64,000 bases of DNA from Thermoprotei archaeon. GTDB lineage: Archaea > Thermoproteota > Thermoprotei_A > Sulfolobales > Desulfurococcaceae. Location: assembly GCA_040514375.1 (NCBI GenBank), contig JBEVCI010000010.1:27163-91162 (forward strand). The letters run 5' to 3'. Under the pieces are notes generated by a model. It saw only the letters and a program-made list of their open reading frames with translations, did no database searches and was not told where the DNA came from. Made by a program: the position numbers and the translations under genes. Within the stretch, counting starts at the first letter, position 1. Each line of letters starts with the position of its first letter. Shown piece by piece: positions 16,596 through 57,397 of the stretch.

Positions 16596-17492
16596 TTATT
16601 GAAGTAATGAGTCTACGGATATCAGGTTCTTCGGTATTGATGCACGAACACCTTTAGCCGGATCAACAGCTTGGTTTATTCTTAGATCCACAGCTAGGCT
16701 TGCAAGCATGTATGCATCTTCAAAGCTTAGTGAGTGTTCTCTCATAAGTGCTTCCACAGCTACTTCTGTAGCTTTACGAGCAGCTTCATCGAGATCCTCG
16801 CCGTAACCGATTACATGTATATGGCTCGAAGTCTCGACTATTGGAAGCATAGGCTTCTTTCTCTTGATTAGCCCCAGCCTAACGGTGACACGACCTGAAA
16901 CCTCTGCAGCTGCTACGCAGATTTCTCCATCTGCTTGAAGTGCATGGAGATCCCCAATCGCTAGCAATGCACCCTCTACGAATACCGGTAGGTATACTCG
17001 TGCACCCTTCGTGATCTCGGCAACATCCATGTTTCCACCATGGGCTCCCGAGGTACCCGTCGGTATAGTACCGCTCTGTGGCGAAACACCTATCACTCCT
17101 ATCATCGGCTTGATCACAAGTTTAATCCCATTGAACACTATACAGCCTCTGGATATAGGTAGGATCCTTATCCTAGGTCTGAACTCTCTATGACCTAGAA
17201 CTCCCGCACCCGGAATCGTGGCTATGACTGCACGCTCACCAACCTCTATATCGAGTATGTCTACAACTAGTGTATCTCCAGGCTCAGCGCCTTCAACATA
17301 GAGTGGCCCCGTAGCTGGATTCACGCGACTCCAGTCTATACTCGATAGAGGTGTATCCTCGTTCTTTACTTGGCCTCCAAACGCATCTAGGGTCTCGAAG
17401 ACCACTATCTCTCCTGGAGAAGCTCTTTCAACGGGCTCGTTATCGGGACTGAAGCTATAGATAACACGGCTACTCGGAATCTTCTTGATCAT
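16596..17492 (-). CDS. acetamidase/formamidase-family amidohydrolase
   Basis: 298 aa. The blocks GEIVVFETLDAFGGQ, GPLYVEGAEPGDTLVVDILDIEV and GGNMDV are typical of the FmdA/AmdA family. Confidence 0.75.
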   Translation of the reverse strand: MIKKIPSSRVIYSFSPDNEPVERASPGEIVVFETLDAFGGQVKNEDTPLSSIDWSRVNPATGPLYVEGAEPGDTLVVDILDIEVGERAVIATIPGAGVLGHREFRPRIRILPISRGCIVFNGIKLVIKPMIGVIGVSPQSGTIPTGTSGAHGGNMDVAEITKGARVYLPVFVEGALLAIGDLHALQADGEICVAAAEVSGRVTVRLGLIKRKKPMLPIVETSSHIHVIGYGEDLDEAARKATEVAVEALMREHSLSFEDAYMLASLAVDLRINQAVDPAKGVRASIPKNLISVDSLLQ

Positions 17493-18422: not shown

Positions 18423-19355
18423 TTATAGTCCTAGTATTGCTTTTATTAGTGCCATTCTCATGTATAGTCCGTTTCTTGTTTGTTCGAAGTATATTGCTTG
18501 TGGTAATACATCAACGTCTGGCGTTAATTCCCATACACGTGGTAGTGGATGCATTATAAGTGGTATTCTCTTGAATTGTTTGAGGTATTCGTAGGTGATC
18601 TTATAGCTACCTTTTAGTCTCTCGTAATCTTCTGGTTTCATTCTCTCTTTCTGTAGTCTCGTCACATATAATACGTCTAGCTTCTCAATAACTTTCTCGG
18701 GTTTCTCGTGTAACTCATACTTGACTTTCCTCTGATCAAGGACTTTTAATACCTCTTCACGGGGACTGAGGTCTTTTGGCGAAATATAGTGTATCTCTAT
18801 GTCGTAGAAGTTCGATAATAGGTATGAGAGGCTTGAAATAGTTCTACCATACCTGAGATCACCCATTATACCAATACGTAGTCCATCGATCCTACCGAGT
18901 GCTCTCCATATAGTATAGACATCTAGGAGTGCTTGTGTCGGGTGTTCGTTATACCCATCACCAGCATTTATAACTGGAGCTCTACAGATCTCGGCAGCTT
19001 TCTTAGCAAATCCTGGTTCGCGGTGTCTAACAACTATGAGGTCAGGATCATAGCTATCAATAGTCCTGAGCGTATCCTCCGGTGTCTCGCCCTTAGCTAT
19101 ACTAGTAACCGCTTCGGGCCCCAGATCGATCACAGAGCCTCCCAGCTTAGTCATTGCAAACTGGAAACTAAGCCTAGTCCTAGTACTTGGTTCGAAGAAC
19201 GCTGTAAACATGATCCTGCCGCGAGCAATATCTAGTCTCTCGCCCTTCTCATATATTCGCCTAAGCTCTTCAGCAAGAGAGATAAGATACTCTATATCAC
19301 TCCGTTTAAACTGGAGAGCAGATACTATATCCATACCCTTAAGCAAACCAAACAC
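18423..19355 (-). CDS. pyrB: aspartate carbamoyltransferase catalytic subunit
   Basis: STRTRLSF carbamoyl-phosphate motif, HPTQALLD, and the HPLPR motif, in a 310-aa protein. Confidence 0.9.
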   Translation of the reverse strand: MFGLLKGMDIVSALQFKRSDIEYLISLAEELRRIYEKGERLDIARGRIMFTAFFEPSTRTRLSFQFAMTKLGGSVIDLGPEAVTSIAKGETPEDTLRTIDSYDPDLIVVRHREPGFAKKAAEICRAPVINAGDGYNEHPTQALLDVYTIWRALGRIDGLRIGIMGDLRYGRTISSLSYLLSNFYDIEIHYISPKDLSPREEVLKVLDQRKVKYELHEKPEKVIEKLDVLYVTRLQKERMKPEDYERLKGSYKITYEYLKQFKRIPLIMHPLPRVWELTPDVDVLPQAIYFEQTRNGLYMRMALIKAILGL

Positions 19356-19511: not shown

Positions 19512-21662
19512 CTAGATATCCACAATCTTACCCTGTTCTACTACTATTTCCCTAAACTCGCCGTCTGCATAGTATAGGAGCGTGCCTTTAGCTCTAACAA
19601 CTACTCTATTGGGTTCTACCATGTCTACTGGATATGGTGGTAATAGGTATTCTCTCAAACCTATTACAGCTTTCCCGCTTCTAACCGGTGCTAGGATCAC
19701 TATATCGGCTTCGAGCTCGGATAACTCGATAACTATTCTGTCTCCGCGTCCAAGTATACCCTTTTCCCCGCTATTGACTAGATAGTAAGCATACTCCTCA
19801 TACCCTAGATCGTGTGGAAGAATCTCTAGTGATATAGTATCTCTAATAGTTTTTCCATCTCTATGTACATTGATAACTCCTACAGCATAAGCCCACTTAA
19901 CTGGCGCAGCGATCTTCAAGAGCTTCTCCTCAGTATAGGGGTCTCTGAAGAGTATGTCTCTAGTAGGTACTCCGGGCTCATCTACTGTAACGACTTCTCC
20001 GCCGGGAAGCACTATCCTCTTTAATAGCTCCACGTTGGTCTTGCGCGGGTCTCTATCGGTTATGTATATGGGTCCACCACTCATTACCCGTGCTACTGCA
20101 TGCGCCATGGCATAGGGGTCGTAGCTCATCCACATATCGTAGTCTGGATAAGCAATGTGTGCAAAGAATAAGGAGTTGTACACGCTGAAGAGTATGTGTA
20201 GTTTTGCATCAACTCTCCAAAACGGTATATAGTCTATTGAAACCCTCATAACATTACTTAGCACGAAGTTACTATAGTTTTCTGGAGCCATAGACATGCA
20301 GTTTAGTATCTCTATACCGCTATTCTGTGCACTAGTTTGAAGTGCTAATTCAACGTTTTTAGCGATTCTCCCCACTGTTTCTTCGCCTTGATAAAGAGCA
20401 TGGATAACCCATTGATTATCCACTTTTACGAAGTTAAAGCCGCTTTCCCTAATCCATTTATAGAATCTCGTGTAGAGACCTAGTGCTTTCTCCACATCAT
20501 AATGGGGTACATAAGTCCCGAGTAAGGGGACTCTATAAGCCTCCCCACCAAGCTGTTCAACTACTCGTTTCTGAACTCCTCCCCAGTGAATATTAATAGT
20601 GTGCCACAACCCAGTCTTCTCGATACCCATGCTCTTTAGCTCACTTACTAGAGGATCTAGGCCTTTTGGAAACTTCTCACTATCTACGCCTAGTTCTTTC
20701 ATTACTCTAACTTCTAGTCCTGGAAGACTTAGTCTATCCTCGATTTGCCACCCATCATCTACTATAACCCACTTGATCGGGATACCGCGCTCTACTAATC
20801 CCCTAATAATCGCAGTAATGTTTTTGTGGCTTAAGTCAGAAGTTAGTAAGGCATTCCAGCTACACCATCCAAGTTTTCCGAGAATACCGGGTCTGGGCTT
20901 ATCTTTTCTCAGCTTAATAATACCAGTAGTAGCAGCTGCTTGTACCATTTTCTTAACTGCTTCGTAGGGATCACCCGCTACTGCTAGAGCCATTACCCGG
21001 CTCTTATCTATACGCTTAACACTCTTCCCTACGAAAACCTTGAGAGTAGGGCCTGGGCCTATGTATCCCGTAGCGTCTCCATTAGTGAAAGTTGCTATTG
21101 CTAAGTATTCTTCACCGTGATCCGTGAGGCTGAAAACCGTGTATTGTATGAGGTCTTTAAAGTCTCTACCAAAATAGTGATATGTCCAGCAGGGATATCC
21201 TCTTATAAACTCTCTATACCCGATCTCTCTAATTCTCGGTGGATAATCAACTGTATCTGGGGGTTTTGGACCCTGTGGTTCTTTATCGATTGCTACGTAG
21301 TTGTAGTATTTAAAAGCGGGTCCGTAGATCATTCCAGCGATTCCAGGATGTAGAGTAAGCCCTAAAAGCCCGTGTGCGCTCTGGTGTTGAAACTCTACTT
21401 TAACGGGTTCTAGGGGATCTAGTAGAGTAAGTGATTCAACTTCTACGCCTAGGGCATAGGATTCTTTACCAATAATTCCTACATAGAGATTGACACGAGC
21501 TTCTCCACAGTTATAGATTAGTTCTCTCTCCCAGACATCATCTAGCAACTGATAACCAGGACTACAAATAGTAGAGGATCCATCCGCGAATTTTAGCTCT
21601 ACTCTCTCTATACGGAGAAACTTCGAAAGAGACTCGTCTACACTCATGGTAGTGAATACCAC
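19512..21662 (-). CDS. GH36 alpha-galactosidase (raffinose-synthase/Sip1-like)
   Basis: GWCSWNA, VIVDDGWQ and VKVDNQ blocks are characteristic of the plant-type/Sulfolobus GalS-like GH36 clade. Confidence 0.7.
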   Translation of the reverse strand: MVFTTMSVDESLSKFLRIERVELKFADGSSTICSPGYQLLDDVWERELIYNCGEARVNLYVGIIGKESYALGVEVESLTLLDPLEPVKVEFQHQSAHGLLGLTLHPGIAGMIYGPAFKYYNYVAIDKEPQGPKPPDTVDYPPRIREIGYREFIRGYPCWTYHYFGRDFKDLIQYTVFSLTDHGEEYLAIATFTNGDATGYIGPGPTLKVFVGKSVKRIDKSRVMALAVAGDPYEAVKKMVQAAATTGIIKLRKDKPRPGILGKLGWCSWNALLTSDLSHKNITAIIRGLVERGIPIKWVIVDDGWQIEDRLSLPGLEVRVMKELGVDSEKFPKGLDPLVSELKSMGIEKTGLWHTINIHWGGVQKRVVEQLGGEAYRVPLLGTYVPHYDVEKALGLYTRFYKWIRESGFNFVKVDNQWVIHALYQGEETVGRIAKNVELALQTSAQNSGIEILNCMSMAPENYSNFVLSNVMRVSIDYIPFWRVDAKLHILFSVYNSLFFAHIAYPDYDMWMSYDPYAMAHAVARVMSGGPIYITDRDPRKTNVELLKRIVLPGGEVVTVDEPGVPTRDILFRDPYTEEKLLKIAAPVKWAYAVGVINVHRDGKTIRDTISLEILPHDLGYEEYAYYLVNSGEKGILGRGDRIVIELSELEADIVILAPVRSGKAVIGLREYLLPPYPVDMVEPNRVVVRAKGTLLYYADGEFREIVVEQGKIVDI

Positions 21663-21766: not shown

Positions 21767-23116
21767 TCAACTCCCTCCGCCACTATGGGGTTTGATCCAC
21801 TTACCTATCCTAATCCCTGTTAATTCTCCGTTTCTAACTACGAGGTGTCCTCTGAGTATAACGTGTTTTATTCTACCACGCAGTTTCCACCCTATGAATG
21901 GGGATAGCTTGTGTTTATACTCGAGCCATTCACTCGTAACAATTGTTTCTCCACTGGGATCCACTATTACGAGGTCTCCACTAGCACCCGGTAGTAGTGA
22001 TCCCTTATATGGCCATAGCTTGAATAGTTTAGCGGGGTTTTCTGATAATAGCCTTGGTATACTAGTTAGTGGTATTAGTTCTCTCAGTGCTAGATCTAGC
22101 ATTATGGGAAGTAGTGTTTGTACACCAGCAAAACCCGATGCTGCTTCCCATATACTCTTGCTCTTCTCCTCGGGAGCGTGTGGAGCGTGATCAGAGCCTA
22201 TTGCGTCAAATAACCCCTTTCTAACAGCTTCTAATAGGTATTCACGGTGTTCTCTACTACGTATTGGTGGATTAACCTTTATCAGCGAACCATACTTAGC
22301 ATAATCGCTCTTATCGAGTACTAGGTAGTGTGGACAAGTCTCAGCAGTAATATCTACATCGGCTTCCCGAGCTCTCAGTACTGTTTCTAGAGCATCACGT
22401 GATGATATGTGAACTATGTGTGGCTTGCCGTGGGTATACTTAGCTATAACAGCTATGCGTGCAATACTGTATGCCTCAGCTAGTGGTGGTCGAGCATCAT
22501 CGTGGAGAGAGGGATCACTACCCCTTTTCCTCGCTTTCTCGGTAAAGTATTTTACTAGAGAATACTCCTCAGCATGAAACATTACACGTGTCCCGGTTTT
22601 ACCGGATTTCTCGAGTATCTCGTATAGAGCGGGATCGCCAGGTGCTGGTAAATTACCAGTAGTTGGTCCCAGGAAAACCTTGAAACCAACAGCTCCTGCT
22701 TCAAGCATATCCTCGAATTCGTGTAGATTACCATCGTGTAAGACACCTGTTAGAGCAAAATCCACGTATGCTTTTGATTCAAGTAGCTTAGCCTTAGATA
22801 ATAGCTTGGTAGAACCCTCTACTGGCGGCAATGTATTCGGATGATCTATAACGGTTGTAACACCACCTTTAATAGCTGCTCGCGAACCGTGTTCAAAATC
22901 ACCCTTATACTCTAGCCCGGGTTCGCGCATGTGAACGTGTTCATCCACTACTCCAGGTAATACGTAGTGTTTACTAGCATCAATTACTTCTTCGACACCA
23001 TTCCTAGATAGATCCCTACCGATCTCTTCTATCGTGCCATCCAAGATCTTGATGTCTAGTTTGTAGATACCAGTACTAGTTACTACGAGACCGTTTTTAA
23101 CGAGAATACTAGACAA
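21767..23116 (-). CDS. pyrC: dihydroorotase-type cyclic amidohydrolase
   Basis: DEHVHMREPG ... AAIKGGVTTVIDHPNT fits the HVHxREPG / MPNT pattern of type I dihydroorotases better than allantoinase or hydantoinase patterns. A later HAE and SDHAPH follow. Confidence 0.6.
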   Translation of the reverse strand: MSSILVKNGLVVTSTGIYKLDIKILDGTIEEIGRDLSRNGVEEVIDASKHYVLPGVVDEHVHMREPGLEYKGDFEHGSRAAIKGGVTTVIDHPNTLPPVEGSTKLLSKAKLLESKAYVDFALTGVLHDGNLHEFEDMLEAGAVGFKVFLGPTTGNLPAPGDPALYEILEKSGKTGTRVMFHAEEYSLVKYFTEKARKRGSDPSLHDDARPPLAEAYSIARIAVIAKYTHGKPHIVHISSRDALETVLRAREADVDITAETCPHYLVLDKSDYAKYGSLIKVNPPIRSREHREYLLEAVRKGLFDAIGSDHAPHAPEEKSKSIWEAASGFAGVQTLLPIMLDLALRELIPLTSIPRLLSENPAKLFKLWPYKGSLLPGASGDLVIVDPSGETIVTSEWLEYKHKLSPFIGWKLRGRIKHVILRGHLVVRNGELTGIRIGKWIKPHSGGGS

Positions 23117-23193
23117 GATATTCCCCCATCCTAGTTATACACTATTTATACTACGTGCACGGATAATAATCTATGGATTAGCTCTCCTCTACC

Positions 23194-25569
23194 ATGTGGT
23201 GGTTATTTGTGGAAGACCCATATAGGCTTGTGGAGAAATGGTTTTCCGCTAAATCCTATCTAGTTGTTGGTAAGAGCATAAAGCGTGTTGATGCACTAGA
23301 TAAGGCACTTGGTAAAGCACTCTTCACCGAGGATTACTTTATAGACTATGTACTCGGTAACGCATTGTTTATTAAGCAGGTTTTGAGTACAGAGCCTCAT
23401 GCACGGATTAAGCGTATAGATGCTTCTAGAGCTCTCTCGATAAATGGAATTGCTGGTGTATTTACGGCTAGGGATATACCGGGCGAGAACCAGGTTGGAT
23501 ATGCTATACCGGATCAGCCCTTAATAGCTGAGGGGAAAGTTAGGTATGTTGGTGAACTAGTAGCATTAGTAGCTGCTAATGACCCGGATAAAGCAATCAT
23601 GGGTGCTGAGGAAGTAGTTGTAGAGTATGAACCACTACCGTATATTCTCGATCCACTCGAAGCTATGAGGAGAACAGATGTACTAATACATGAGGAGAGA
23701 GGTTCTAATATAGCGTTTACAACAAGGGTTCGTAAGGGTAATGTTGAAGAGGGTTTTTCGAGAGCACATGCTGTTGTTGAAAACGAGTATAGGCTTCACC
23801 ACCAAGAGCACGCCTATTTAGAAACAGAGGCTGCACTAGCTATACCAGAAGCCGAGGGTAGAATCACGGTTATCGGGGCATTACAGTATCCACATCTTGG
23901 CCAGAAAATAGTTGCTCGTGTACTAGGATTACCGATGAGTAAGGTAAAGATCGTTGCACCATATATTGGTGGGGGTTTTGGCGGTAAAGACGATGAAGGA
24001 CCACTAACATGTGCTAAAGCCGCACTAGTAGCTTATCTAACTCGTAAACCAGCTCTAATAGTGTATAGTCGTGAGGATTCTATAAAGGTTCACCCCAAGC
24101 GCGAGGCAGCTATTATTCGTTATAAGAGCGGTGCAGATGCTGAGGGTAGGCTAACAGCTATCGATGTAACGATCATACACGATACGGGAGCATATGCTAA
24201 CCGCGGCCCATTTATACTGTGGAGAGCAACAATGCATGCTTCCGGCCCCTACGTAGTACCAAATGCAAAAGTTGATGGCTACGCAGTGTATACGAATAAG
24301 GTTTACCAGGGATCATTTAGAGGCTTCGGTAACTTGTCTATACAATTCGCTGTTGAGAGACAAATGGACTTACTCGCTGAGAAGCTTGGCATGGACCCTG
24401 TTGAGTTTAGGCTTAAGAATATCCTACGCGAGGGCTCATACACGCTGACTAACCAGTTACTAGACCACTCGGTAGGAGTCGGTGATGCATTAAAACTAGT
24501 TGCTGAAAAAGCTGATTGGTGGAGGAAACGGAGAGAGTATACCGAGTTTAACAAGAAGAGCCCTAGGTATAAACGGGGTATTGGTGTTGCTATTGCATGG
24601 CACGGTATTAGTACTTCTAGAGCAGTACCAGACTGGTCTAATGCTTATGTAAAAATCGAGCTTGACGGATCAGTCACCGTATACACTGGAATAGTTGAGA
24701 TTGGACAGGGCTCGCCCACTTCGTCACATGTCCAAATAGTATCAGAAGTTCTCGGAGTACCGCCCGACTGGGTTAAAGTAGTGTTTGCTACTACTGATGC
24801 ACCGGATGGTGGTGCTACACATGCTTCTCGTGGTACTGGTATTGGTGGTCTTGGAGTACTAGTTGTAGCTGCTAAGCTTAGAGAGAGATTAGCTAGACTA
24901 GCATCTGATATGTTAGGAGCCGATCCCGAGGAGATAGAGTTTAGAGATGGTAAAGTATACTGGAGGAAAGACCCGAGTAAAAGTATCTCGTGGAGAGCAC
25001 TAGTGCGTGAAGCATATGCTCGCGGTGTAGAAATGAGTGCTACTGGTTACTACTATTTACCTAAAGGAAAATTCGATGACCGAGTTGGACAGGGCTTCGC
25101 ATATCCTGCTTATAGCTTCCTAGTATTGATTACAGAAGCCGAGGTTGATACATGGACTGGTTTTGTAAGGGTTACCCGTGTTTATCCAGCACTAGCAACT
25201 GGTAAGATCATTAACCCGCAGCAGGTCGAGGGACAGATCGAGGGCGCGGTTTCACAAGCAATAGGTTATACTCTAATGGAGAAACTATACTTTGGTAGTA
25301 AGGGCGAGATCCTTAACCCCAATTTCACAGACTATGTTATACCAACAGCGCGTGATATCCCCGTGGTTGAGAAGCCGATCTATGTCGAAGACAAGTTTAG
25401 GCATGGAGCATTTGGTGCTAAAGGTGTTGGTGAAATGGCGCTAATACCCGGTCCTGCATCAATAGCTAATGCTGTATCACACGCACTTGGAGTAAATATT
25501 ACTGAGACCCCACTTACACCGTGGAAGATCCTAGAGTATCTCGGAAAACTACGTGTGGGTGGGAAATAA
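23194..25569 (+). CDS. xanthine-oxidase-family molybdopterin-binding large subunit, copy 1
   Basis: 791 aa. N-terminal VGKSIKRVDALDKALGKALFTEDY (a/b hammerhead), GGGFGGK, and C-terminal FGAKGVGE with the family catalytic Glu. Confidence 0.9.
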   Translation: MWWLFVEDPYRLVEKWFSAKSYLVVGKSIKRVDALDKALGKALFTEDYFIDYVLGNALFIKQVLSTEPHARIKRIDASRALSINGIAGVFTARDIPGENQVGYAIPDQPLIAEGKVRYVGELVALVAANDPDKAIMGAEEVVVEYEPLPYILDPLEAMRRTDVLIHEERGSNIAFTTRVRKGNVEEGFSRAHAVVENEYRLHHQEHAYLETEAALAIPEAEGRITVIGALQYPHLGQKIVARVLGLPMSKVKIVAPYIGGGFGGKDDEGPLTCAKAALVAYLTRKPALIVYSREDSIKVHPKREAAIIRYKSGADAEGRLTAIDVTIIHDTGAYANRGPFILWRATMHASGPYVVPNAKVDGYAVYTNKVYQGSFRGFGNLSIQFAVERQMDLLAEKLGMDPVEFRLKNILREGSYTLTNQLLDHSVGVGDALKLVAEKADWWRKRREYTEFNKKSPRYKRGIGVAIAWHGISTSRAVPDWSNAYVKIELDGSVTVYTGIVEIGQGSPTSSHVQIVSEVLGVPPDWVKVVFATTDAPDGGATHASRGTGIGGLGVLVVAAKLRERLARLASDMLGADPEEIEFRDGKVYWRKDPSKSISWRALVREAYARGVEMSATGYYYLPKGKFDDRVGQGFAYPAYSFLVLITEAEVDTWTGFVRVTRVYPALATGKIINPQQVEGQIEGAVSQAIGYTLMEKLYFGSKGEILNPNFTDYVIPTARDIPVVEKPIYVEDKFRHGAFGAKGVGEMALIPGPASIANAVSHALGVNITETPLTPWKILEYLGKLRVGGK

Positions 25570-26444
25570 TGTTCTATAGATTACCCGATTTCGAGTATAG
25601 GAGAGCTAGTAGTGTTGAAGAAGCTGTAAAACTTCTAAACGAGCTAGAGAACGCCAAGATACTGGCTGGCGGTACTGATCTACTGCTCGATATGAAAATT
25701 GGTAGGTATAAGCCCAAGTACGTAATCGACATCAGCGGTATTAGAGAACTAAAATACATCAGAGATACTGGTGAAGAGCTCAGAATCGGTGCTCTAACAA
25801 CTATTCAGGAAATACTCGATTCACCCATAGTACGCGAAAAAACACCACTACTCTACTTAGCAGCTCGCGAATTCGGTTACTGGCAAATACGCAACATGGG
25901 TACTATAGGTGGTAACCTCTGCAACGCTTCTCCCGCAGCAGATACAGCTCCACCATTACTAGTATACGAAGCTATTATTAGAGCACGCAGTATCGAGGGC
26001 GAGAGACTGATCCCCATAACGGAGTTTTTCCACGGACCCCGACAAATAGAGCTTAAGAACAACGAGTTGCTAGTCGAGGTTATAGTACCGTATAAGAAGC
26101 TAGAAGATTATGGATACTCCTACGCCAAGATCGGTAGGAGGAGGGGACACGATATCTCAGTAGTAGCAGTTGCTACGGCTATCAAGATCGAGGATGGTGT
26201 AGTAGCTGATGCTAGAATAGCTCTTAACTCAGTTGCACCGAAGCCTATTAGAGCACGTAGTGCAGAGAAAGTGCTGATTGATAAGAAACCCAGTGACGAG
26301 TTGTTTGAAGAAGCAGCTAATGCTGTTACGAAAGACATATCGCCTATTAGTGATGTCAGAGCTCCAGCCGAGTATAGATTGTATATGTCTAGGCTCCTCG
26401 TTAGAGAAACTCTGCGTGAAGCATTCGAGAAAGCTATGGGGTGA
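25569..26444 (+). CDS. FAD-binding medium subunit (CoxM/XdhB-like), copy 1
   Basis: The ATG overlaps the L1 stop (TAATG). ILAGGTDLL and IRNMGTIGGNLCNASPAADTAPPLLVY FAD-binding blocks are present. Confidence 0.85.
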   Translation: MFYRLPDFEYRRASSVEEAVKLLNELENAKILAGGTDLLLDMKIGRYKPKYVIDISGIRELKYIRDTGEELRIGALTTIQEILDSPIVREKTPLLYLAAREFGYWQIRNMGTIGGNLCNASPAADTAPPLLVYEAIIRARSIEGERLIPITEFFHGPRQIELKNNELLVEVIVPYKKLEDYGYSYAKIGRRRGHDISVVAVATAIKIEDGVVADARIALNSVAPKPIRARSAEKVLIDKKPSDELFEEAANAVTKDISPISDVRAPAEYRLYMSRLLVRETLREAFEKAMG

Positions 26445-26450
26445 TCACGC

Positions 26451-26912
26451 GTGATCGTCGAGTTTAAATTGAATGGTAAACCCGTAAAAGTAGATGTTGA
26501 TCCACGCGAAATACTACTAGATACACTAAGATTTAAGCTGAGAGTTAAGAGCGTTAAACGCGGATGTGAGAGAGGCGAGTGTGGTTCTTGCACCGTACTC
26601 GTTGATGGTAAACCAGTAGTTTCGTGTATGGTCTTAACAACACAGGTTATGGGTCGTGAAGTAATCACGGTTGAGGGCCTTGAGAAAGATGAGCTTTTCC
26701 AGAAACTTGTTAATAGCTTTGTCGAGAACGGTGCTATACAGTGTGGTTTCTGTACACCGGGTATGCTACTAGTAGCTTGGGCTGGTATTCGCGAGGGTAA
26801 GATGAGGGATCCAGAGAGTATTAAGGAATACTTGGGTAATCTCTGTAGATGCACTGGTTACGTCAAGATCATCGAGGCTATACACAAGGTTGCCGAGGGT
26901 GTCTATAAGTGA
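26451..26912 (+). CDS. [2Fe-2S] small subunit (CoxS/XdhC-iron-sulfur-like), copy 1
   Basis: CERGECGSCTV (plant-type cluster), then CGFCTPG and CRCTGY (second cluster). Confidence 0.9.
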   Translation: MIVEFKLNGKPVKVDVDPREILLDTLRFKLRVKSVKRGCERGECGSCTVLVDGKPVVSCMVLTTQVMGREVITVEGLEKDELFQKLVNSFVENGAIQCGFCTPGMLLVAWAGIREGKMRDPESIKEYLGNLCRCTGYVKIIEAIHKVAEGVYK

Positions 26913-29266
26913 ATACCTCCTATCGCTATATTGGTAAGAGACTACCACGTAAAGACGCTATTCCAAAAGTCACTGGTACTCTCAAGTATACTAATGACTT
27001 AGAAGTACCCGGTATGCTCATCGGCAAGATCGTTAGAAGCCCCTATGCATTCGCTGATATTAAGAGAATAGATGTTAGCGAAGCTGTTAGAATGGGTGCT
27101 GTCGTAATAACACCAGATGATGTACCACAGAAACCCTTTAATCCAAGACTCGTGAGTATTAATGAGGTTACCTATAAGGATACCTATATACTAACCTATA
27201 AGCCGCGATACCTAGGTGAACCAGTAGCCGCTGTAGCCGCTCCATCTGAAGAGCTTGCTCAGAGAGCTGCTGAAGCTGTAAAGATAGAGTTTGAGAGAAT
27301 ATACAAGCCTATACTAGACCCCTATGAGGCTATGAAACCCGATACACCACTCATACACGAGAAGATCATGAAGGGCGATGAGTGGATAGAGGTTAAAAAC
27401 AATATTGCTGCCCGCCTTGATTACGAAGAGGGAGATGTTGAGAAGGGATTTAGCGAAGCGGATGTTATTATTGAGCGCTCCTTCAAGACCGGTAAGAGGT
27501 ATCACATGCAGTTAGAACCAAAAGCTGTTCTAGTAGTTCCAGAACCCGGTGGCAAGTTAACAATATATACTACTACTCAGACAATCCACAATACCCGGAT
27601 ACTGATAAGCCAGTTATTCGATATACCCGAGAGCAGGATCAGCGTTGTACGAGTACCTATTGGTGGTTCATTTGGTTCTAGTATTCAGACAAACTACTTG
27701 GTACCAATAGCGGTTGCACTAGCTCTCAAGGCTAAGAAGCCAGTCAAGATCGCCTATACTAGAGAAGAGGATATGCTCGATCACTCTAACTTCGTATTCC
27801 ACTTCAAGATAAAAGTAGGTGCTCGAAAAGACGGGGTATTCACAGCTGCAGAGTTTACGAATATCCTTGACGTAGGTGCTCACCAAGTACAGCCTTACCC
27901 ACTACTAGGTACTAGTCTAGGCTGGTTTGTCTCGATGTATAAGTGGAGAAACCTCCGGTACCACGGTATAGCAGTCTATACCAATAAAGTACCGGGTTGT
28001 GCCCTACGCGGCTATGGTGCTCCAGAGGTACAATGGGCTGTTGAAACCGTAGTCGACGAGATAGCCGAGAAACTGGGCATAGACCCGATCGAGCTGCGGC
28101 TCAAGAACTACGTTGGTAAAGGCGATATATTCTGGGGACAGGGTCCCACGGTTAAATCCGTTATCAAATCAGATGGTGTACCAGAGCTATTGTTAAAGGG
28201 CAAGGAACTAATTGGTTGGGATAAGCGCGGTCATCCAAGCGAGAAAAAGGGTAGGTTTAGACGCGGTATCGGTGTGGGTAGGGGATTCCACACATCTGGT
28301 GCTGGCGGTCCTATTAGCGGCGAAGTCATAGACTATACTGGCTGTATACTAAAGCTAAACGAGGATGGAACACTAGACTATATAACAGCTTTACAAGACC
28401 ACGGTGGTGGTAGCTTAGACGCGCACGTCAAGATTATCGCTGAAGAGCTAGGAGTGCCACCAGATCTTATAAACATAGCTACAGCAACAACCGAGAACAC
28501 GCTATACGATGTCTGTACACATGCTTCTCGTGGAACATATGTTGGTGGAGAGTGTGCTAGAAGAGCTGCGCAGATCCTTAAGCAGAGGATATTCGAGACA
28601 GCTATACGTATTCTTGGTAAAGTCGTTAATCCCGAGGCTTTGAAAATAGGCTATGACGAAGAGCTGGGTGAAGTAGTTGTCTACGTAGAAGGCACTGATC
28701 TAAAGGTTACTCTCAGAGAACTAGCGTGGACTGCATGGCAGAGAAACTGGGGTACACTAACAGCTGTAGTATCCTATAGATCAACGTCTGCACCGCCGAG
28801 CTTTACAGTATACTTCGTCGAAGTAGAGGTTGATACATGGACTGGTAAGGTTAGACCAGTTAGAGTAGTTGCTGGTGCTGATGTTGGTACACCTATTAAC
28901 CCCGACATGGTTGAGGGCCAACTACACGGTGGTTTTGCAATGGCTTGGGGCATGGCTTTTAGCGAAGATACAAAGTATGATCCGAGAACCGGAGAGATTA
29001 TGGGTAGAATGCTCATTACAGACTACAAGATACCGACAGCGGAGGATGTACTAGAACCAGAGAATTTCAAGGTAATACTAGCAAATACCTATGAACCAAC
29101 AGGGCCCTTTGGTGCTAAGGGGTTAGGAGAAGCTGCTATGAATCCAGCTGTTGGTGCTATACTCAATGCGGTCTACAACGCTATTGGTGTTAGATTCTAC
29201 GAGTTACCGGTTACACCGGATAAGATAATTAAGGCTCTAAGAGAAAGAGGTGAAACCCCATGGTAG
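26909..29266 (+). CDS. xanthine-oxidase-family molybdopterin-binding large subunit, copy 2
   Basis: 785 aa. The GTG start overlaps the S1 stop (GTGA). IGKRLPRKDAIPKVTGTLKYTND, GGSFGS and C-terminal FGAKGLGE are present. Confidence 0.9.
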   Translation: MNTSYRYIGKRLPRKDAIPKVTGTLKYTNDLEVPGMLIGKIVRSPYAFADIKRIDVSEAVRMGAVVITPDDVPQKPFNPRLVSINEVTYKDTYILTYKPRYLGEPVAAVAAPSEELAQRAAEAVKIEFERIYKPILDPYEAMKPDTPLIHEKIMKGDEWIEVKNNIAARLDYEEGDVEKGFSEADVIIERSFKTGKRYHMQLEPKAVLVVPEPGGKLTIYTTTQTIHNTRILISQLFDIPESRISVVRVPIGGSFGSSIQTNYLVPIAVALALKAKKPVKIAYTREEDMLDHSNFVFHFKIKVGARKDGVFTAAEFTNILDVGAHQVQPYPLLGTSLGWFVSMYKWRNLRYHGIAVYTNKVPGCALRGYGAPEVQWAVETVVDEIAEKLGIDPIELRLKNYVGKGDIFWGQGPTVKSVIKSDGVPELLLKGKELIGWDKRGHPSEKKGRFRRGIGVGRGFHTSGAGGPISGEVIDYTGCILKLNEDGTLDYITALQDHGGGSLDAHVKIIAEELGVPPDLINIATATTENTLYDVCTHASRGTYVGGECARRAAQILKQRIFETAIRILGKVVNPEALKIGYDEELGEVVVYVEGTDLKVTLRELAWTAWQRNWGTLTAVVSYRSTSAPPSFTVYFVEVEVDTWTGKVRPVRVVAGADVGTPINPDMVEGQLHGGFAMAWGMAFSEDTKYDPRTGEIMGRMLITDYKIPTAEDVLEPENFKVILANTYEPTGPFGAKGLGEAAMNPAVGAILNAVYNAIGVRFYELPVTPDKIIKALRERGETPW

Positions 29267-30192
29267 GTAATGGCGAGATCCCCCCTGTAAATGTCACAGC
29301 TATGAATACTAGGATTATACCAATAGAGTTTGATTACTATGAACCAAAGACGCTGGATGAAGCACTAGAATTACTAGATAAGTTTGGAGAAAAAGCCAAG
29401 ATACTAGCAGGTGGTACAGACCTCCTCGTCAAGATCAAGGCCCGGATCATAGAACCTCGCGTTATAATTAATATCAAGAAAATACTAGGTCTAAGGTATA
29501 TTCGAGAAGAGGAAAAGGTAATCCGTATAGGTGCGCTTACACGGTTAAGGGATTTAGAGAGATCAGATATTATTAAGAAGTACTTGCCAGCACTCTACGA
29601 CGCTGTTAAGGTTATGGGTAGTATTCAGATACGTAACATGGGTACTATTGGAGGAAATCTCTGTAATGCGTCACCAGCAGCTGATACGGCTCCACCACTA
29701 CTAGTATATGATGCGAGAGCAGTAATAGCTAGTGTTGATGGTGAGAGAGTAGTTCCTCTTGAGGAGTTCTTCGTAGGGCCTGGCAAAACGGTGCTGAAGC
29801 CTAACGAGATGCTTAAGGAAATAATTGTTGAGAAACCAAGCAGGGGTTCCTCAGCGTTTAAGAAAGTTTCGAGAGTAGCTGTTGATCTCGCTATAGCTAG
29901 TTCTGCTGTATACCTTGTAGTAGAGGACGGTGTTATTAAAGAAGCTAGGATAGCGCTTGGATCTGTTGCTCCTAAGCCAGTTAGAGCACGTAAGACAGAG
30001 AATGCCGTTAAAGGACTTAGAGTAGGGTCTGAAGAACTACGGAGTGCACTCAATAAGCTCGAGGAGGAAATATCCCCTATCACAGACGTTAGATCTACTG
30101 CTGAGTATAGGAGGTATGTTGTTAAGGTGTTAACTTGGGATTCTCTTCACAAAGCATATGAGCGATTGAGTCGAGGTGGTGTATATGGTTAG
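29260..30192 (+). CDS. FAD-binding medium subunit, copy 2
   Basis: Same FAD blocks as copy 1. The start is either ATG 29260 (overlapping the L2 stop) or ATG 29302 (MNTRIIPIEFDYYEP aligns with the copy 1 N-terminus). Confidence 0.85.
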   Translation: MVGNGEIPPVNVTAMNTRIIPIEFDYYEPKTLDEALELLDKFGEKAKILAGGTDLLVKIKARIIEPRVIINIKKILGLRYIREEEKVIRIGALTRLRDLERSDIIKKYLPALYDAVKVMGSIQIRNMGTIGGNLCNASPAADTAPPLLVYDARAVIASVDGERVVPLEEFFVGPGKTVLKPNEMLKEIIVEKPSRGSSAFKKVSRVAVDLAIASSAVYLVVEDGVIKEARIALGSVAPKPVRARKTENAVKGLRVGSEELRSALNKLEEEISPITDVRSTAEYRRYVVKVLTWDSLHKAYERLSRGGVYG

Positions 30193-30646
30193 AGTATCCC
30201 TTAGGGTTAATGGCGAGAAAGTAGAACTCGATGTTAAGCCTAATGAACTGTTGATCAATACTCTTAGAGAGAAGCTTGGTTTAACGAGTGTTAAGTATGG
30301 TTGTGGTATTGGCGAGTGTGGTAACTGTACAGTACTAGTTAATGGTGAACCAGTACTAGCTTGTCTTACTCTAACGGTTGACGTAGATGGAGCCGAGATC
30401 ACTACTGTTGAGGGGTTATCTAAGGAAGAGCTCACAGAGATACAGAAAGCATTTATCGAAGAAGGAGCTTTCCAGTGTGGTTACTGCACGCCAGCATTCA
30501 TTATAATGTCTGAGTACCTATTACGCGAGAAAGAGAAACCCTCACTCAATGATGTGAAAGAGTATTTAAAGGGAGTGCTGTGTCGTTGTACTGGCTATAT
30601 AAACATATTCAGAGCAGTACTTAGAGCCGCCAGTAGGAAGCACTGA
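30185..30646 (+). CDS. [2Fe-2S] small subunit, copy 2
   Basis: CGIGECGNCTV, CGYCTP and CRCTGY. ATG 30185 is preceded by GAGGTGGTG and overlaps the M2 stop (ATGGTTAG). Confidence 0.9.
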   Translation: MVRVSLRVNGEKVELDVKPNELLINTLREKLGLTSVKYGCGIGECGNCTVLVNGEPVLACLTLTVDVDGAEITTVEGLSKEELTEIQKAFIEEGAFQCGYCTPAFIIMSEYLLREKEKPSLNDVKEYLKGVLCRCTGYINIFRAVLRAASRKH

Positions 30647-30909
30647 TGAAGATCACCATTATATACTCTGGTTTTTTATCACAAATAACCGGTATTAAAC
30701 GCGAAGAAATAGACATCGAAGAGAATACTACGCTAGAAGAACTCCTCAACACAATCTATAGTAAACACCATAGACTAAGTGAATGGGTTAATAGAATCCC
30801 CCTCATAGAAGTCATGGTTAACGGCGAACCCGTATACAACCCGAGAAAACACGTACTTAGAGAAGGAGACGAAGTAGTTCTTGCACCAGTACTCTACGAA
30901 GGCGGTTGA
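30646..30909 (+). CDS. MoaD/ThiS-family beta-grasp (ubiquitin-like) protein with a C-terminal diglycine
   Basis: 87 aa ending ...VVLAPVLYEGG*. The ATG overlaps the S2 stop (TGATG). Confidence 0.75.
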   Translation: MKITIIYSGFLSQITGIKREEIDIEENTTLEELLNTIYSKHHRLSEWVNRIPLIEVMVNGEPVYNPRKHVLREGDEVVLAPVLYEGG

Positions 30910-31226: not shown

Positions 31227-31643
31227 TTATGGGTGTGTTATTATATTATGTTTCATTGCTATCTCGGCTATTTTCTTGTCAAAGGTTGCTAGACCTGCTC
31301 CGGTAGATTTAGCGAGTTGAATGTATAGAGCATCGTATACAGTGATGTCTTCGTCTAATGCAAGTTTAAAGGCTTCCTCTGCAATCTCCTTTGAGGAATG
31401 TATTCTTAGTTTTGTCCATAATTTTAAGAGATCCTTGACGGCCTCTATTGCTTCTCCCTTATCTATGTCATGTATTTTTAATGCATGCTTCCATACAGCA
31501 TTTAGGGCTTCGGGAAGGGCTAAATCTATTGTTAATAACATCTCACCCTTTCTAATCCATAAACGTGTAAGATCACGCGCTTTCCTAGACCCCTCTTCGC
31601 TGAGTATGAGTTTTACTAGAAATGATGCATCGAGTACTATCAA
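31227..31643 (-). CDS. vapC: PIN-domain toxin (VapC)
   Basis: MIVLDASFLVKL (first acidic residue), later EA, DALY and FD acidic positions, and a 4-nt overlap with the upstream small ORF. Confidence 0.8.
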   Translation of the reverse strand: MIVLDASFLVKLILSEEGSRKARDLTRLWIRKGEMLLTIDLALPEALNAVWKHALKIHDIDKGEAIEAVKDLLKLWTKLRIHSSKEIAEEAFKLALDEDITVYDALYIQLAKSTGAGLATFDKKIAEIAMKHNIITHP

Positions 31644-31891
31644 TGCTCTTCCCTAGTCTCCCTAATGAGTTTTGTTGAATCCACTCTTGTTCTTCTTCTT
31701 CCTGCCCTCTCCTCGATCTCGTCTAGTATTTCGAGGAGCTCCAACGACTTGATACGTTCCTCGATAAATCTCCTAATCTCACTACTCCAATCAATACGGT
31801 ACTTCTTCATCTTCTCCTTTAACTCCCTCGGTACCCTGACCGATACAACTTCAGACAACAGTATACACCAAGTAATACATATTGTATACAC
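31640..31891 (-). CDS. vapB: VapB-type antitoxin
   Basis: VSVRVPRELKEKMKKYRIDWSSEIRRFIEERI is a typical archaeal VapB N-terminus. The true start is probably TTG at 31858, because an ATATAAATAG TATA-like box sits at about 31895-31910, too close to the ATG at 31891. Confidence 0.55.
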   Translation of the reverse strand: MYTICITWCILLSEVVSVRVPRELKEKMKKYRIDWSSEIRRFIEERIKSLELLEILDEIEERAGRRRTRVDSTKLIRETREEH

Positions 31892-32301
31892 ATCTATTTA
31901 TATGTTATTAGATATTACGCATTGCAATAAAATAATAAGTCTAATACAGTACTGTTTCACGCCCTCTAAAAGAAATAGCAAAGACCCTAGCACAGTTATC
32001 CCCGAAAACATGAAGTGAAGCTATTAAACGAGAAACACGGGAGATGCGAATATTTCACTACTATATAGGTTGGCAGTAATTACTGGGAAAGTATTTGTCT
32101 TTTCAAAGATAATAATTAATCGCAGTTATTGAAGACGTAAGGGAATTCGCTGTAACTATGCGATTCCCAGCGTTTTTGGCGACATCATAGGAGGGCGGCA
32201 TGCTAGGAAATCAGGAAACACTTTAGTTTACCCATACACAGTACTGATTTGAGGGGTGAAAAGCATTTAGATATGTTTATGCTGGAAGCAGAGGAATAGT
32301 A

Positions 32302-32769
32302 ATGGTTTTCCTAGACACTAATCCTATATAATCTACTATCTACTATCTGCATAATGTAGAGCCATATTCTCGAAGAGTAGAAGAACTATTATCAGAAGGG
32401 GACAGGCTCTATACAAGCATAAAAATACTAGATGAGGCCTTCTTCACAATAGCGAGAACAAAGGCATAGATGCAATTAGAAGTAAGACGCGTAGAAAAGC
32501 TTAGAGACTATATACGGAAACATAGATATGGATTCTTCGAGGAGGAAATAAATAAGCTATACAGCTTCCTGGAGGATATGGATATAACTGTATTAGAAGA
32601 CAAAGCTACGCCCCGGAGATAATAGATGTTACTAAGAAGTATCATCTACTGCCAGCAGATGCTATTGTAGCGATTAATACGTAAACACTACGAGATAAAT
32701 ATCATAGCAATCCTAGATGAAGACTTCAGAAGAGTACCGGGGCTAAAAAGCTATTCCACAGCATTTTGA
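32302..32769 (+). pseudogene. decayed PIN-domain (VapC-like) gene
   Basis: Fragments read MVFLDTNPI* / STIYYLHNVEPYSRRVEELLSEGDRLYTSIKILDEAFFTIARTKA* / MQLEVRRVEKLRDYIRKHRYGFFEEEINKLYSFLEDMDITVLEDKATP.. / ..KKYHLLPADAIVAINT*..INIIAILDEDFRRVPGL. PIN signature positions are spread over three frames with several stops. Confidence 0.6.
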
Positions 32770-33413
32770 GGAATATAAATCCGTGGAAAGCTGGAGAGTA
32801 CTAAGAGAAAAACAGTGGCGGGAGTACTCTTGCACAGGGATGCAACCAATATATTCTCTGCAATATATGCTATCAACTCATTGACGGAATCCTATATAAC
32901 AAGTTTTTATCAAGAGAATAGGAGCACGCTATAGGTGAACCGGAGACGTTGAAGATAAACCCAGAGCAACTAGAAACTCGTATCATAAAGCCGATCAAGA
33001 AGAGACTGATAAGGATAAGACCAGCAATAAGGGTAAACTCCAGCTCTAAGCCCTAGAGGAACAATAGGATACGTAAACCCGGCATTAACAATACATAGTA
33101 GTATTTATTAAGTTATCCGTTGAAGAATAAGTAGGTCATTGTCTGCCACCAAGTAGTAGCTGTTCATCGGGATCCTCTAATCCTTCGCCGTGGGATCTCC
33201 GTCACTCTAGGTAATAGATGTCTGCATCACACAGTAAATATCTGCTTAACACGATTAACTGCTTATGCGTTATCACTAACTATTCGTAATGCATTTTGCT
33301 CCATTTCTATGATACTGCTGAGATCGAGTTGTTGCGGTTTATGGCTGGTCTATATCTTGCAAACGTATTGGTATAGTAAAAGCTATAGCTCGCTAGAATA
33401 GTACTTATTGTTG

Positions 33414-56152: not shown

Positions 56153-57397
56153 CTAAGATAATGTATGTAGTACTATGTCTACTTCATCTCCCTTCTCAAA
56201 ACCCTCGTTATCCTCCGGTATTACTAGATAGCCATTTGTTTTAACGAGACTAGATAATACTCCACTACCTCTCAGCATATAGGGTTCTGCATAGTAATTA
56301 CCGTTTTCTCTCCATACACGTACACGGATATAGCTACGATACCCTATTACATTAGGTGTTCTACGCGTTAATACTGCTCTAATAGTAGGCTTTACTGGGG
56401 GGTTTAAGCCCATTAGCCTATACAGTATTGGAGTAACTAGTGCCTCGAGACCTGTCCACGCAGCAACAGGGAACCCGGATAAGAGAAATACTGGTTTATT
56501 ATCTACCAGTGCTAAGCTAGTTGGACGACCCGGCCTCATAGCAACACCGCGGAAAACCCATGTACCGTGCTTTTCGACAACATCTTGTATAACGTCTTGT
56601 CCACTAATACCAGCACCACCAGTAACCACTACTACGTGGTGATCCTCTATAAGCCTTAGTAGAACATTCTCGAGAATACTTTTCTTATCGGGATAAACCC
56701 CGTAGTAAAGGGGTTTAGCAAAAGGTATCTCCTCCAGATAGTTTTTAACTAGTACACCAGTAGAGTTGTAGAGTTTTCCAGCTACACGTCTATAGCCCGG
56801 TTCTACAACTTCATCGCCTGTTGTGAATATAGCTATTCTTATCTTCTCGTATACTTTCACTTTATCGACACCGGTGCTAGCAATAATGCCGAGATGCCAG
56901 GGACGAAGCAGTGTATTCTTACTGACAAGTACTTCTCCTTTAGTATAATCCTCTCCACGACGCGAGACATTAGCATATGGTGCTACTTGCCTGTAGATAT
57001 CAACGTATTCCCCATCTCTACTAGTATCCTCTGCCATAACAACAGCGTTTGCACCACGCGGTAACGGAGCACCAGTAGATACTTCAACAGCTTCTCCGTG
57101 ACCAATACTATGCTTATTGGGAGTATCGCCGGGCCTTAATATACCAACAACCCTTAGTCTTACCGGATTTAATGGTGATGCTCCATACGTATCCTCGGCA
57201 ATAACAGCGTACCCATCAACAGCAGAGCGATCGTATTCGGGGTGATCAAAACCGGCAATAATGTCCTCGGCTAATACATGTCCACAAGCACTCCACACAC
57301 TCTCTTCTACAACCCCTAGCTCGAGCCCTCCTAGCATATTAACAGCTTTCTCAATAGCTTCATCCACACTAACTAGTTCACCAAGAAACCTATACAA
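56153..57397 (-). CDS. moeA: molybdopterin molybdotransferase MoeA
   Basis: 414 aa. SAVDGYAV, a central MoCF-biosynthesis domain (VVVTGGAGISGQD) and a C-terminal beta-barrel. Confidence 0.85.
   Translation of the reverse strand: MYRFLGELVSVDEAIEKAVNMLGGLELGVVEESVWSACGHVLAEDIIAGFDHPEYDRSAVDGYAVIAEDTYGASPLNPVRLRVVGILRPGDTPNKHSIGHGEAVEVSTGAPLPRGANAVVMAEDTSRDGEYVDIYRQVAPYANVSRRGEDYTKGEVLVSKNTLLRPWHLGIIASTGVDKVKVYEKIRIAIFTTGDEVVEPGYRRVAGKLYNSTGVLVKNYLEEIPFAKPLYYGVYPDKKSILENVLLRLIEDHHVVVVTGGAGISGQDVIQDVVEKHGTWVFRGVAMRPGRPTSLALVDNKPVFLLSGFPVAAWTGLEALVTPILYRLMGLNPPVKPTIRAVLTRRTPNVIGYRSYIRVRVWRENGNYYAEPYMLRGSGVLSSLVKTNGYLVIPEDNEGFEKGDEVDIVLHTLS

Follow-up and report, generated by a model that had tools for sequence, protein, structure and literature searches.

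In archaea, MoaD-family beta-grasp proteins are commonly encoded by paralogous genes that adjoin the genes for aldehyde:ferredoxin oxidoreductase (AOR) enzymes (PMC2948915). In Thermococcus kodakarensis grown under low sulfur, deletion of the ubiquitin-like protein UblC (TK1065) reduced molybdopterin and AOR activity by about half and abolished formaldehyde:ferredoxin oxidoreductase (FOR) activity, and UblB, together with an E1 partner, serves GAPOR (PMC11323500). The present analysis concerns a 64-kb window (64,000 nucleotides; positions 27,163 to 91,162 of contig JBEVCI010000010.1) from the metagenome-assembled genome of a hot-spring Thermoprotei archaeon of the Desulfurococcaceae type, in which positions 23194-30909 of the + strand form one seven-gene operon encoding two different heterotrimeric (Mo-pterin/FAD/2x[2Fe-2S]) hydroxylases of the xanthine-oxidase family plus a small gene for an 87-aa MoaD/ThiS-family beta-grasp protein of a “(Y/F)EGG” subfamily, hereafter the YEGG protein. 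To our knowledge, the installation of the sulfido ligand and the delivery of the molybdenum cofactor (Moco) to xanthine-oxidase-family enzymes are essentially unstudied in archaea, and we know of only two sulfuration routes: bacterial XdhC and the eukaryotic Moco-sulfurase. MoaD paralogues beside AOR genes are already known; what is new here is such a paralogue, with a YEGG tail, attached to a xanthine-oxidase-family operon. By analogy with UblC, and with a probability put at roughly 0.45, the YEGG protein may be an extra, lineage-specific, enzyme-linked MoaD-family sulfur carrier for the cofactor supply of both hydroxylases.

The operon comprises seven co-directional open reading frames (ORFs) in the order L1-M1-S1-L2-M2-S2-beta-grasp gene, with barely any intergenic DNA, where L, M and S denote the molybdopterin-binding large subunits, the FAD-binding medium subunits and the subunits with two [2Fe-2S] clusters, respectively. 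L1 (23194..25569) overlaps M1 (25569..26444) by 1 nt in TAATG at 25567-25571, where the L1 stop meets the M1 ATG. The TGA stop of M1 ends at 26444, and a 6-nt gap separates it from GTG 26451, the start of S1 (26451..26912). The remaining junctions are GTGA at 26909-26912 between S1 and L2 (26909..29266), ATGGTAG at 29260-29266 between L2 and M2 (29260..30192), and ATGGTTAG at 30185-30192 between M2 and S2 (30185..30646), with GTG 30176 upstream as an alternative start for S2. Finally, S2 and the beta-grasp gene (30646..30909) are translationally coupled through TGATG at 30644-30648. The same seven genes were predicted by an independent gene caller in the Logan assembly of the same DNA, which starts M1 (291 aa) at ATG 25569 and S2 at ATG 30185. 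All seven ORFs, with their coordinates, their order and every junction quoted by an earlier, sequence-only reading of the window, are present in the sequence. The operon terminates at the small gene, since an opposite-strand PIN/RHH toxin-antitoxin pair (31227-31891, - strand) sits downstream. On the other side, a 77-bp, A/T-rich divergent region with a TTTATA-like element, read from the sequence (23117..23193), is presumed to be a shared promoter region for the operon and an oppositely oriented amidohydrolase gene. Rfam, tRNA and terminator scans added nothing to this picture, and no Rfam or tRNA match was obtained anywhere in the window.

Profile searches of the seven proteins, proposed in the sequence-only reading, returned Pfam domains that fit the L/M/S/ThiS assignment throughout. 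Both large subunits carry Ald_Xan_dh_C, MoCoBD_1 and MoCoBD_2 (PF01315, PF02738 and PF20256; E-values 1e-21 to 1e-83), both medium subunits FAD_binding_5 and CO_deh_flav_C, and both small subunits Fer2 and Fer2_2, with the two Cys motifs readable in the S1 and S2 translations. Together with the active-site residues described below, these domains place both enzymes among the L/M/S hydroxylases of the xanthine-oxidase family.

The product of the last gene had been described as 87 aa ending in GG, which is correct; its C-terminus reads ...LYEGG, with the stop directly after and no extension. The protein scores 34.1 against PF02597 (ThiS; gathering threshold 22.5) and lies under the cut-offs of the more specific models TIGR01687 moaD_arch (37.4 versus 49.5) and TIGR01682 moaD (23.3 versus 66). 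Its AlphaFold2 (AF2) model is a beta-grasp fold with a pLDDT of 91, and the top Foldseek matches are SAMP1 of H. volcanii (the best), MOCS2A, and the MoaD proteins of mycobacteria, Pyrococcus and E. coli, all at probability 1.0 and TM 0.78-0.84. Membership in the MoaD/ThiS superfamily is therefore established by fold, sequence similarity and the terminal Gly-Gly. A word-index homology search with the 87-aa protein returned only the protein itself; HMMER, run exhaustively over 1.84 billion representatives, gave just 27 matches at E <= 1e-3. About fourteen of these form a tight subfamily with an invariant (L/F)(Y/F)EGG end, and the weaker matches are ordinary MoaD proteins ending in PPxSGG or PPxAGG. 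The diglycine is found in 16 of 16 aligned subfamily members, with P0133 adding a six-residue extension beyond it. A profile search extended the family to 31 clusters, the named ones belonging to Desulfurococcus mucosus, Desulfurococcaceae, Zestosphaera and “Thermoprotei”. Alignments of the family contain no conserved stretch of 7-10 columns, and purifying selection on the gene is indicated by a dN/dS of about 0.1, a value from one pair with unsaturated synonymous sites.

The resemblance to SAMP1 raises the idea of a SAMP/Urm1-like modifier: its GG tail would be joined to lysine side chains on the hydroxylase subunits, or on other proteins, and so regulate these targets or direct their turnover. 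Besides the structural match, the exposed diglycine end without extension is in keeping with such a role, and all three Thermococcus ubiquitin-like proteins (Ubls) are described as making conjugates (PMC11323500). The protein scores only 24.2 against the SAMP1 equivalog NF041918 (cut-off 60), however, and the window scans revealed no JAMM/Rpn11-type isopeptidase, E1 or proteasome-related gene nearby. Because conjugation and sulfur carriage can coexist, a modifier is also no clean alternative to a carrier, and it is considered improbable, the least probable of the readings weighed here.

Published tables bear directly on the standing of the cap gene. For D. kamchatkensis, the supplement of Makarova & Koonin 2010 (PMC2948915) lists a single MoaE and five genes of arCOG00536 (MoaD). 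One of the five, encoding 86 aa, lies directly behind 780/301/153-aa genes of arCOG01167/01926/01925, that is, L-M-S; a second, of 78 aa, adjoins MoaE/MoaC; and the others are found beside AOR and radical-SAM genes (91 aa), beside an E1-like gene (106 aa) and elsewhere (90 aa) (PMC2948915). Since this species has a canonical MoaD-MoaE pair in addition to its L-M-S-MoaD arrangement, the cap is an extra paralogue, and a role as sole or housekeeping MoaD is ruled out for the genus. The sequence-only reading had allowed that the gene might be the only MoaD in its genome; its status as an extra paralogue stands as shown in the related D. kamchatkensis. The same source counts the L-M-S-MoaD arrangement as a single occurrence, and its main text does not mention xanthine dehydrogenase (PMC2948915). 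The earlier statement that no coupled beta-grasp gene was known for such enzymes holds insofar as the arrangement has gone uncommented, but it is present in published genomes and in a supplementary table from 2010, and AOR-tied MoaDs are well known, some of them with a degree of functional characterisation (PMC11323500).

The distribution of the small gene was surveyed by scanning an alignment of L2 over species-representative genomes (at least 600 stretches, 80 loci, D. mucosus not among them), supplemented by single-orthologue look-ups. The gene lies directly 3' of S2 in seven sequences, with spacings that vary between a 17-nt overlap and a 23-nt gap and with small proteins that are 25-48% identical. 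These are the window, Desulfurococcaceae KM4337-20 (L053), an ENA metagenome (L010), a JGI metagenome (L092), D. mucosus (L002), Thermogladius (L037) and D. kamchatkensis, and all labelled members of the group are Desulfurococcaceae. The arrangement is therefore confined to one archaeal family, as far as cases are labelled, and was already in public genomes. In Thermogladius the order is S2-YEGG-PyrB-like, and in L092 a MoaA-like radical-SAM gene and a MoCF_biosynth gene are found within 8 kb. Among the matches listed, the YEGG gene occurs at no further L2-orthologous locus.

If the YEGG protein is a sulfur carrier for the two hydroxylases, the cell's E1-like MoeB/UbaA would adenylate and thiocarboxylate its C-terminal Gly-Gly, and the thiocarboxylate sulfur would then pass into pterin cofactor synthesis for the two co-translated enzymes. 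In its simplest form, the protein would act as an alternative small subunit of the single MoaE. Cofactor supply would rise along with synthesis of the apo-enzymes, co-translation serving to boost or channel that supply. Several lines of evidence argue for such a carrier: the operon anatomy and translational coupling, the domain content, and the MoaD/SAMP1-like fold with its free GG tail; the S2-YEGG adjacency kept in seven diverged sequences, together with purifying selection; the additional nature of the D. kamchatkensis cap relative to its MoaD-MoaE pair; the MoaA-like and MoCF_biosynth neighbours in L092; and the presence of MoeA. The last-mentioned gene, for the molybdenum insertase (56153..57397, - strand; Pfam MoeA_N, MoCF_biosynth and MoeA_C, with NCBIfam agreement), is 25 kb off and outside the operon, and indicates that the organism makes Moco.

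A number of observations weigh against a dedicated carrier. Neither the operon nor the window holds a gene for MoaE, an E1-like enzyme or another sulfur-transfer protein in the Pfam/NCBIfam scans. The L-Y-E-G-G tail is one residue longer and bulkier than the canonical P-P-x-S/A-G-G, and it might misfit a MoaE pocket. The small protein is only 36-48% identical where L2 is 85-88% identical (window versus L053 and L092), a disparity in rate that is unusually large for genes of one operon. Moreover, among the matches listed, most orthologous L1/L2 clusters lack the YEGG gene. The neighbourhood comparison suggested by the sequence-only reading thus turned out unfavourably for a general coupling, with orthologous operons mostly devoid of a beta-grasp gene and S2 adjacency limited to the Desulfurococcus/Thermogladius-type group. 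Two cassettes without an adjacent YEGG gene are seen in Zestosphaera, Fervidicoccaceae, Desulfurococcales ex4484_58, Bathyarchaeia, Caldarchaeales, a Thermococci metagenome-assembled genome (MAG), Clostridia and Chloroflexi. In three Bathyarchaeia loci and the one Thermococci MAG locus, a canonical MoaD ending in FPPVSGG is found about 7 kb upstream of L2, with MoeA also near it in two of those three Bathyarchaeia loci. Finally, in four contigs of identical synteny (L008, L009, L011 and L093), of the Zestosphaera/TW002 type as far as they carry a name, the YEGG gene stands away from L1/L2, in a row consisting of a TldD/PmbA pair, YEGG, a 398-aa MFS-like gene, OAD_beta, a PyrB/ATCase-like gene and ThiI with a rhodanese domain.

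These four contigs, in which YEGG is four genes upstream of ThiI, also speak for a more general role, namely that the protein is one of several redundant Ubl carriers, for instance for tRNA thiolation or general molybdopterin synthesis, and that its position behind S2 is a clade-specific accident. The narrow distribution and fast evolution of the YEGG family fit this view, as does the functional redundancy of the Thermococcus Ubls (PMC11323500). The window also encodes a TtuA/NcsA-like PP-loop tRNA 2-thiolation enzyme (12314-13294, + strand; TtuA_LIM_N and ATP_bind_3), located 17 kb from the operon, whose best NCBIfam model is the Pyrococcus-type TtuA (217 bits, under the cut-off). Enzymes of the TtuA/NcsA class draw sulfur from ubiquitin-like thiocarboxylate carriers, so the YEGG protein might have this one as an alternative client. 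Against an accident of position, the overlapping or near-abutting S2 junction has been kept in seven sequences even though the small proteins share only 25-48% identity. In addition, even where YEGG is separated, only some 3 kb divide it from the carbamoyltransferase-like gene that in other lineages joins the L1/L2 cluster, and this proximity, along with the S2-YEGG-PyrB-like order of Thermogladius, points to an ancestral link between YEGG and L1/L2. A general-purpose role is regarded as unlikely.

The maturation genes of the orthologous clusters suggest yet another function. As the sequence-only reading had noted for the operon, an XdhC-type maturase is missing; neither XdhC nor MocA was found in the operon or the 64-kb window, whether with Pfam/NCBIfam profiles run on almost every ORF of 100 aa or longer or among the Logan gene calls. 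Likewise, tblastn with archaeal XdhC and MocA gave only chance matches (E > 0.7) in the window and in 15 Desulfurococcales loci (+/-10 kb), so that no XdhC (PF02625 plus PF13478) lies near the structural genes in any of them. A Pfam survey of 148 neighbouring ORFs at 16 non-Desulfurococcales loci gave a different result, the commonest neighbours being a MobA/MocA-like NTP transferase (8 loci) and XdhC (5 loci). Specifically, XdhC (XdhC_CoxI plus XdhC_C) and a MocA-like cytidylyltransferase are both in-cluster at four Bathyarchaeia loci and one Caldarchaeales locus, and tblastn added an XdhC in Aigarchaeota (L015). In Bathyarchaeia, XdhC typically sits between the two cassettes and the MocA-like gene immediately follows S2; in L014 and L015 the MocA-like gene is immediately upstream of L2. 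The double-cassette loci of Caldarchaeales, Aigarchaeota and Bathyarchaeia with XdhC and a MocA-like gene are L014, L015, L018, L019, L020 and L022, and some Bathyarchaeia loci also have a ModC-like ABC/TOBE gene, MoeA and canonical MoaD a few kb upstream. By gene content, then, the Bathyarchaeia/Caldarchaeales loci carry a full local maturation kit that is locally missing in Desulfurococcales.

It is tempting to suggest on these grounds that the thiocarboxylated YEGG protein provides the terminal Mo=S ligand, or escorts the sulfurated cofactor into L1/L2, and so replaces XdhC and its cysteine desulfurase in Desulfurococcaceae. In addition to the contrasting distribution of XdhC and MocA, both large subunits retain the catalytic Glu as well as the Gln that is typical of sulfido-dependent hydroxylases, and a tail as unusual and conserved as YEGG hints that the protein has some partner besides MoaE. 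In Fervidicoccaceae, ex4484_58 and Zestosphaera, however, the clusters lack XdhC and have no YEGG gene next to them, and the absence of XdhC from a neighbourhood is weak evidence. The idea is also without precedent, MoaD being unmentioned in a review from 2026 on the sulfido ligand of Moco (PMC13653126). Direct sulfido donation is accordingly judged decidedly unlikely, and a carrier feeding pterin cofactor synthesis for the two hydroxylases remains the favoured interpretation.

The two cassettes that the YEGG protein would serve are themselves quite different. Identity between them is 34% for L1/L2, 46% for M1/M2 and 49% for S1/S2, and in both archaea and bacteria the L1-type and L2-type cassettes form separate lineages that occur together, bearing out the old duplication proposed in the sequence-only reading. 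By these comparisons, the cassettes are distinct enzyme types that separated anciently and not recent duplicates. The closest Protein Data Bank (PDB) matches of L1 are NdhL (3hrd), R. capsulatus XdhB (1jro) and bovine xanthine dehydrogenase (XDH), and its active site is XDH/nicotinate-dehydrogenase-like. It keeps Gln231, Arg344 and Glu747 (the equivalents of bovine Gln767, Arg880 and Glu1261) and has Asp266 at the Glu802 position, all conserved in orthologues. L2, a large subunit of a second type, is closest to the alpha chain of 4-hydroxybenzoyl-CoA reductase (1rm6) and a CoxL-like chain (8uem). It has Ile at the Glu802 position and Thr at the Arg880 position, and both are kept in most of its orthologues from several phyla; more than 100 orthologues are known at 58-90% identity, the closest relatives being Desulfurococcaceae. 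The Mo=O-contacting Gln and the catalytic Glu (bovine Gln767 and Glu1261) are present in L1, L2 and every aligned orthologue. The GAKG(V/L)GE motif with the catalytic Glu, claimed earlier for both large subunits, was located at residue 741 of L1 (GAKGVGE) and residue 735 of L2 (GAKGLGE). Neither protein is a bona fide xanthine dehydrogenase, given Asp266/Arg344 in L1, Ile/Thr in L2 and, at best, XdhA scores of 482-502 bits against cut-offs of 780-916. More broadly, both score far under the cut-offs of the NCBIfam equivalogs for XdhA, PucD, HcrA, glyceraldehyde dehydrogenase and CoxL. A selenium-dependent hydroxylase system was also rejected for the window, where the AIR-synthase-like gene at 45874-46881 is ThiL-like (thiL score 149.7; selD score 29 versus a cut-off of 125).

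The medium subunits share an identical 27-aa block, IRNMGTIGGNLCNASPAADTAPPLLVY, at 25887-25967 in M1 and 29629-29709 in M2. Its DNA differs at 14 of 81 nt, all synonymously, in line with the shared block and synonymous divergence pointed out by the sequence-only reading. The block is a conserved FAD-subunit motif of the family that is near-invariant in orthologues of many phyla. Family-wide conservation and the 14 synonymous differences attribute the identity to purifying selection and rule out recent gene conversion.

L1-type and L2-type cassettes are found together in Desulfurococcaceae, Zestosphaera, Fervidicoccaceae, Desulfurococcales ex4484_58, Bathyarchaeia, the Thermococci MAG, Firmicutes/Clostridia, Chloroflexi and Thermoleophilia. 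Very often the pair has a cyclic amidohydrolase gene and an aspartate-carbamoyltransferase (ATCase)-like gene for neighbours. In the window, the amidohydrolase is an allantoinase/dihydroorotase-like protein of 449 aa (21767..23116, - strand; Pfam Amidohydro_1) that is divergent from the operon; it passes the pyrC_multi model (335.6 versus 279) and scores 357.8 against allantoinase TIGR03178 (cut-off 357.85). Its homologues adjoin L1/L2 clusters in Desulfurococcales, the Thermococci MAG, Firmicutes and Chloroflexi. The ATCase-like gene (18423..19355, - strand) passes TIGR00670 (330.6 versus 237) and retains the classical ATCase motifs in a by-eye reading of its translation, and no ORF for PyrI, the regulatory chain, was seen downstream of it. 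Homologues are positioned right after S2 or L1, or a few kb away, in Fervidicoccaceae, ex4484_58, Thermogladius, D. mucosus, the Thermococci MAG, Chloroflexi, Thermoleophilia and Eubacteriales; in lineages other than that of the window, the gene can be translationally coupled to S2 or follow L1. A formamidase/acetamidase-family gene of 298 aa (16596..17492, - strand; Pfam FmdA_AmdA) may be accessory to this catabolic island, and in Zestosphaera a 433-aa FmdA_AmdA gene adjoins S1. A raffinose-synthase-like gene (19512-21662, - strand) lies between the amidohydrolase and the ATCase-like/formamidase pair. Other clusters include transporters: a xanthine/uracil permease in Fervidicoccaceae and, in a Eubacteriales locus (L028), branched-chain-type ABC permease genes that separate L2 from the pair of carbamoyltransferase and amidohydrolase genes.

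On this gene content, L1/L2, the amidohydrolase and the carbamoyltransferase may speculatively be viewed as a conserved catabolic module for N-heterocycles of the purine or pyrimidine type, in which the ring, once hydroxylated, would be opened and a carbamoyl group then split off by phosphorolysis. A loose precedent is the module of allantoinase and pseudo-ATCase (ureidoglycine carbamoyltransferase), in which an amidohydrolase and an ATCase-annotated carbamoyltransferase likewise stand beside XDH-type genes (Barba et al. 2013, PMC4016543). The analogous clustering suggests ring opening and subsequent phosphorolysis to carbamoyl phosphate, although the window's carbamoyltransferase differs in having ATCase motifs and passing the ATCase equivalog, and neither carbamate kinase nor uricase was seen in the window. 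Identity with the gut-bacterial 2,8-dioxopurine/reductive urate cluster (XdhD, YgfK, SsnA, HyuA, YgeW, YgeX, YgeY, YqeA) was rejected, since the YgfK, YgeX and carbamate-kinase types are absent in the Pfam scans. A YgeW identity of the carbamoyltransferase fails as well, the protein reaching only 27 bits and being of the ATCase type instead. Literature searches gave no specific lead on XdhC in Crenarchaeota or on a pathway linking orotate to the XDH family.

Several other features of the window were recorded. These include a 444-aa serpin-family protein (59324-60658, + strand; Pfam Serpin, E = 2e-60), a subtilase (14367-15656), and two overlapping - strand ORFs (43702-44283 and 44234-44905) that each match half of the MFS_1 profile and look like a single transporter gene that has been split or frameshifted, or that was misassembled. 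Beyond the PIN/RHH pair next to the operon, toxin-antitoxin types are represented by a TumE-family toxin (42908-43282, - strand) and a HEPN plus nucleotidyltransferase pair (47427-48247, + strand). Finally, about 1.3 kb at 32019-33382 has no ORF of at least 60 aa on either strand.

Taken as a whole, one and the same cluster exists in two versions, with XdhC and MocA in Bathyarchaeia/Caldarchaeales and, in Desulfurococcaceae, with a dedicated-looking MoaD paralogue and neither of the two nearby, which makes for a compact and testable comparison. If the paralogue proves specific, enzyme-dedicated ubiquitin-like carriers would extend from the tungsten AORs to the xanthine-oxidase family. Were it instead to donate the sulfido ligand, this would be a Ubl-dependent sulfuration of Moco, a process undescribed in any organism. 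The four-part module of two hydroxylases, an amidohydrolase and an ATCase-like enzyme, found in archaeal and bacterial anaerobes, may in turn represent an uncharacterised nucleobase fermentation yielding carbamoyl phosphate.

Compared with known systems, the two enzymes share L/M/S composition, the Glu and the Gln with NdhL/M and XDH (nearest L1), with HcrA and CoxL-like chains (nearest L2) and with the Sulfolobus glyceraldehyde oxidoreductase (GAOR) isozymes (PMC4726530). L1 resembles XDH in its Arg880 equivalent and departs from it in having Asp for Glu802, and L2 has Ile/Thr at these positions. XdhC with a cysteine desulfurase, exemplified by R. capsulatus XdhC/NifS4, answers the same need, the supply of sulfurated Moco to a large subunit of the xanthine-oxidase family (PMC13653126, PMC2997495). 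XdhC and the YEGG protein are nonetheless unrelated, and XdhC resides within the orthologous Bathyarchaeia/Caldarchaeales clusters but is undetected in the window and the Desulfurococcales loci. With canonical MoaD (E. coli, 1fm0; human MOCS2A, 5mpo), the YEGG protein has in common the fold (TM about 0.8), the Pfam ThiS/MoaD domain and the GG end, and is set apart by scores under TIGR01687/TIGR01682, a tail with one additional residue and a conserved Tyr/Phe-Glu, and the lack of an adjacent moaE. Relative to UblC (TK1065) and other AOR-linked MoaDs (PMC11323500; PMC2948915), the partners here belong to the xanthine-oxidase family (mono-pterin Mo, FAD, 2Fe-2S) and not to the tungsten bis-pterin AORs, no radical-SAM gene is adjacent, and the protein constitutes its own (Y/F)EGG subfamily, restricted to Desulfurococcaceae as far as members are named; yet like them it is a GG-ended MoaD-family beta-grasp protein, an extra paralogue, and the neighbour of a gene for a pterin-cofactor oxidoreductase.

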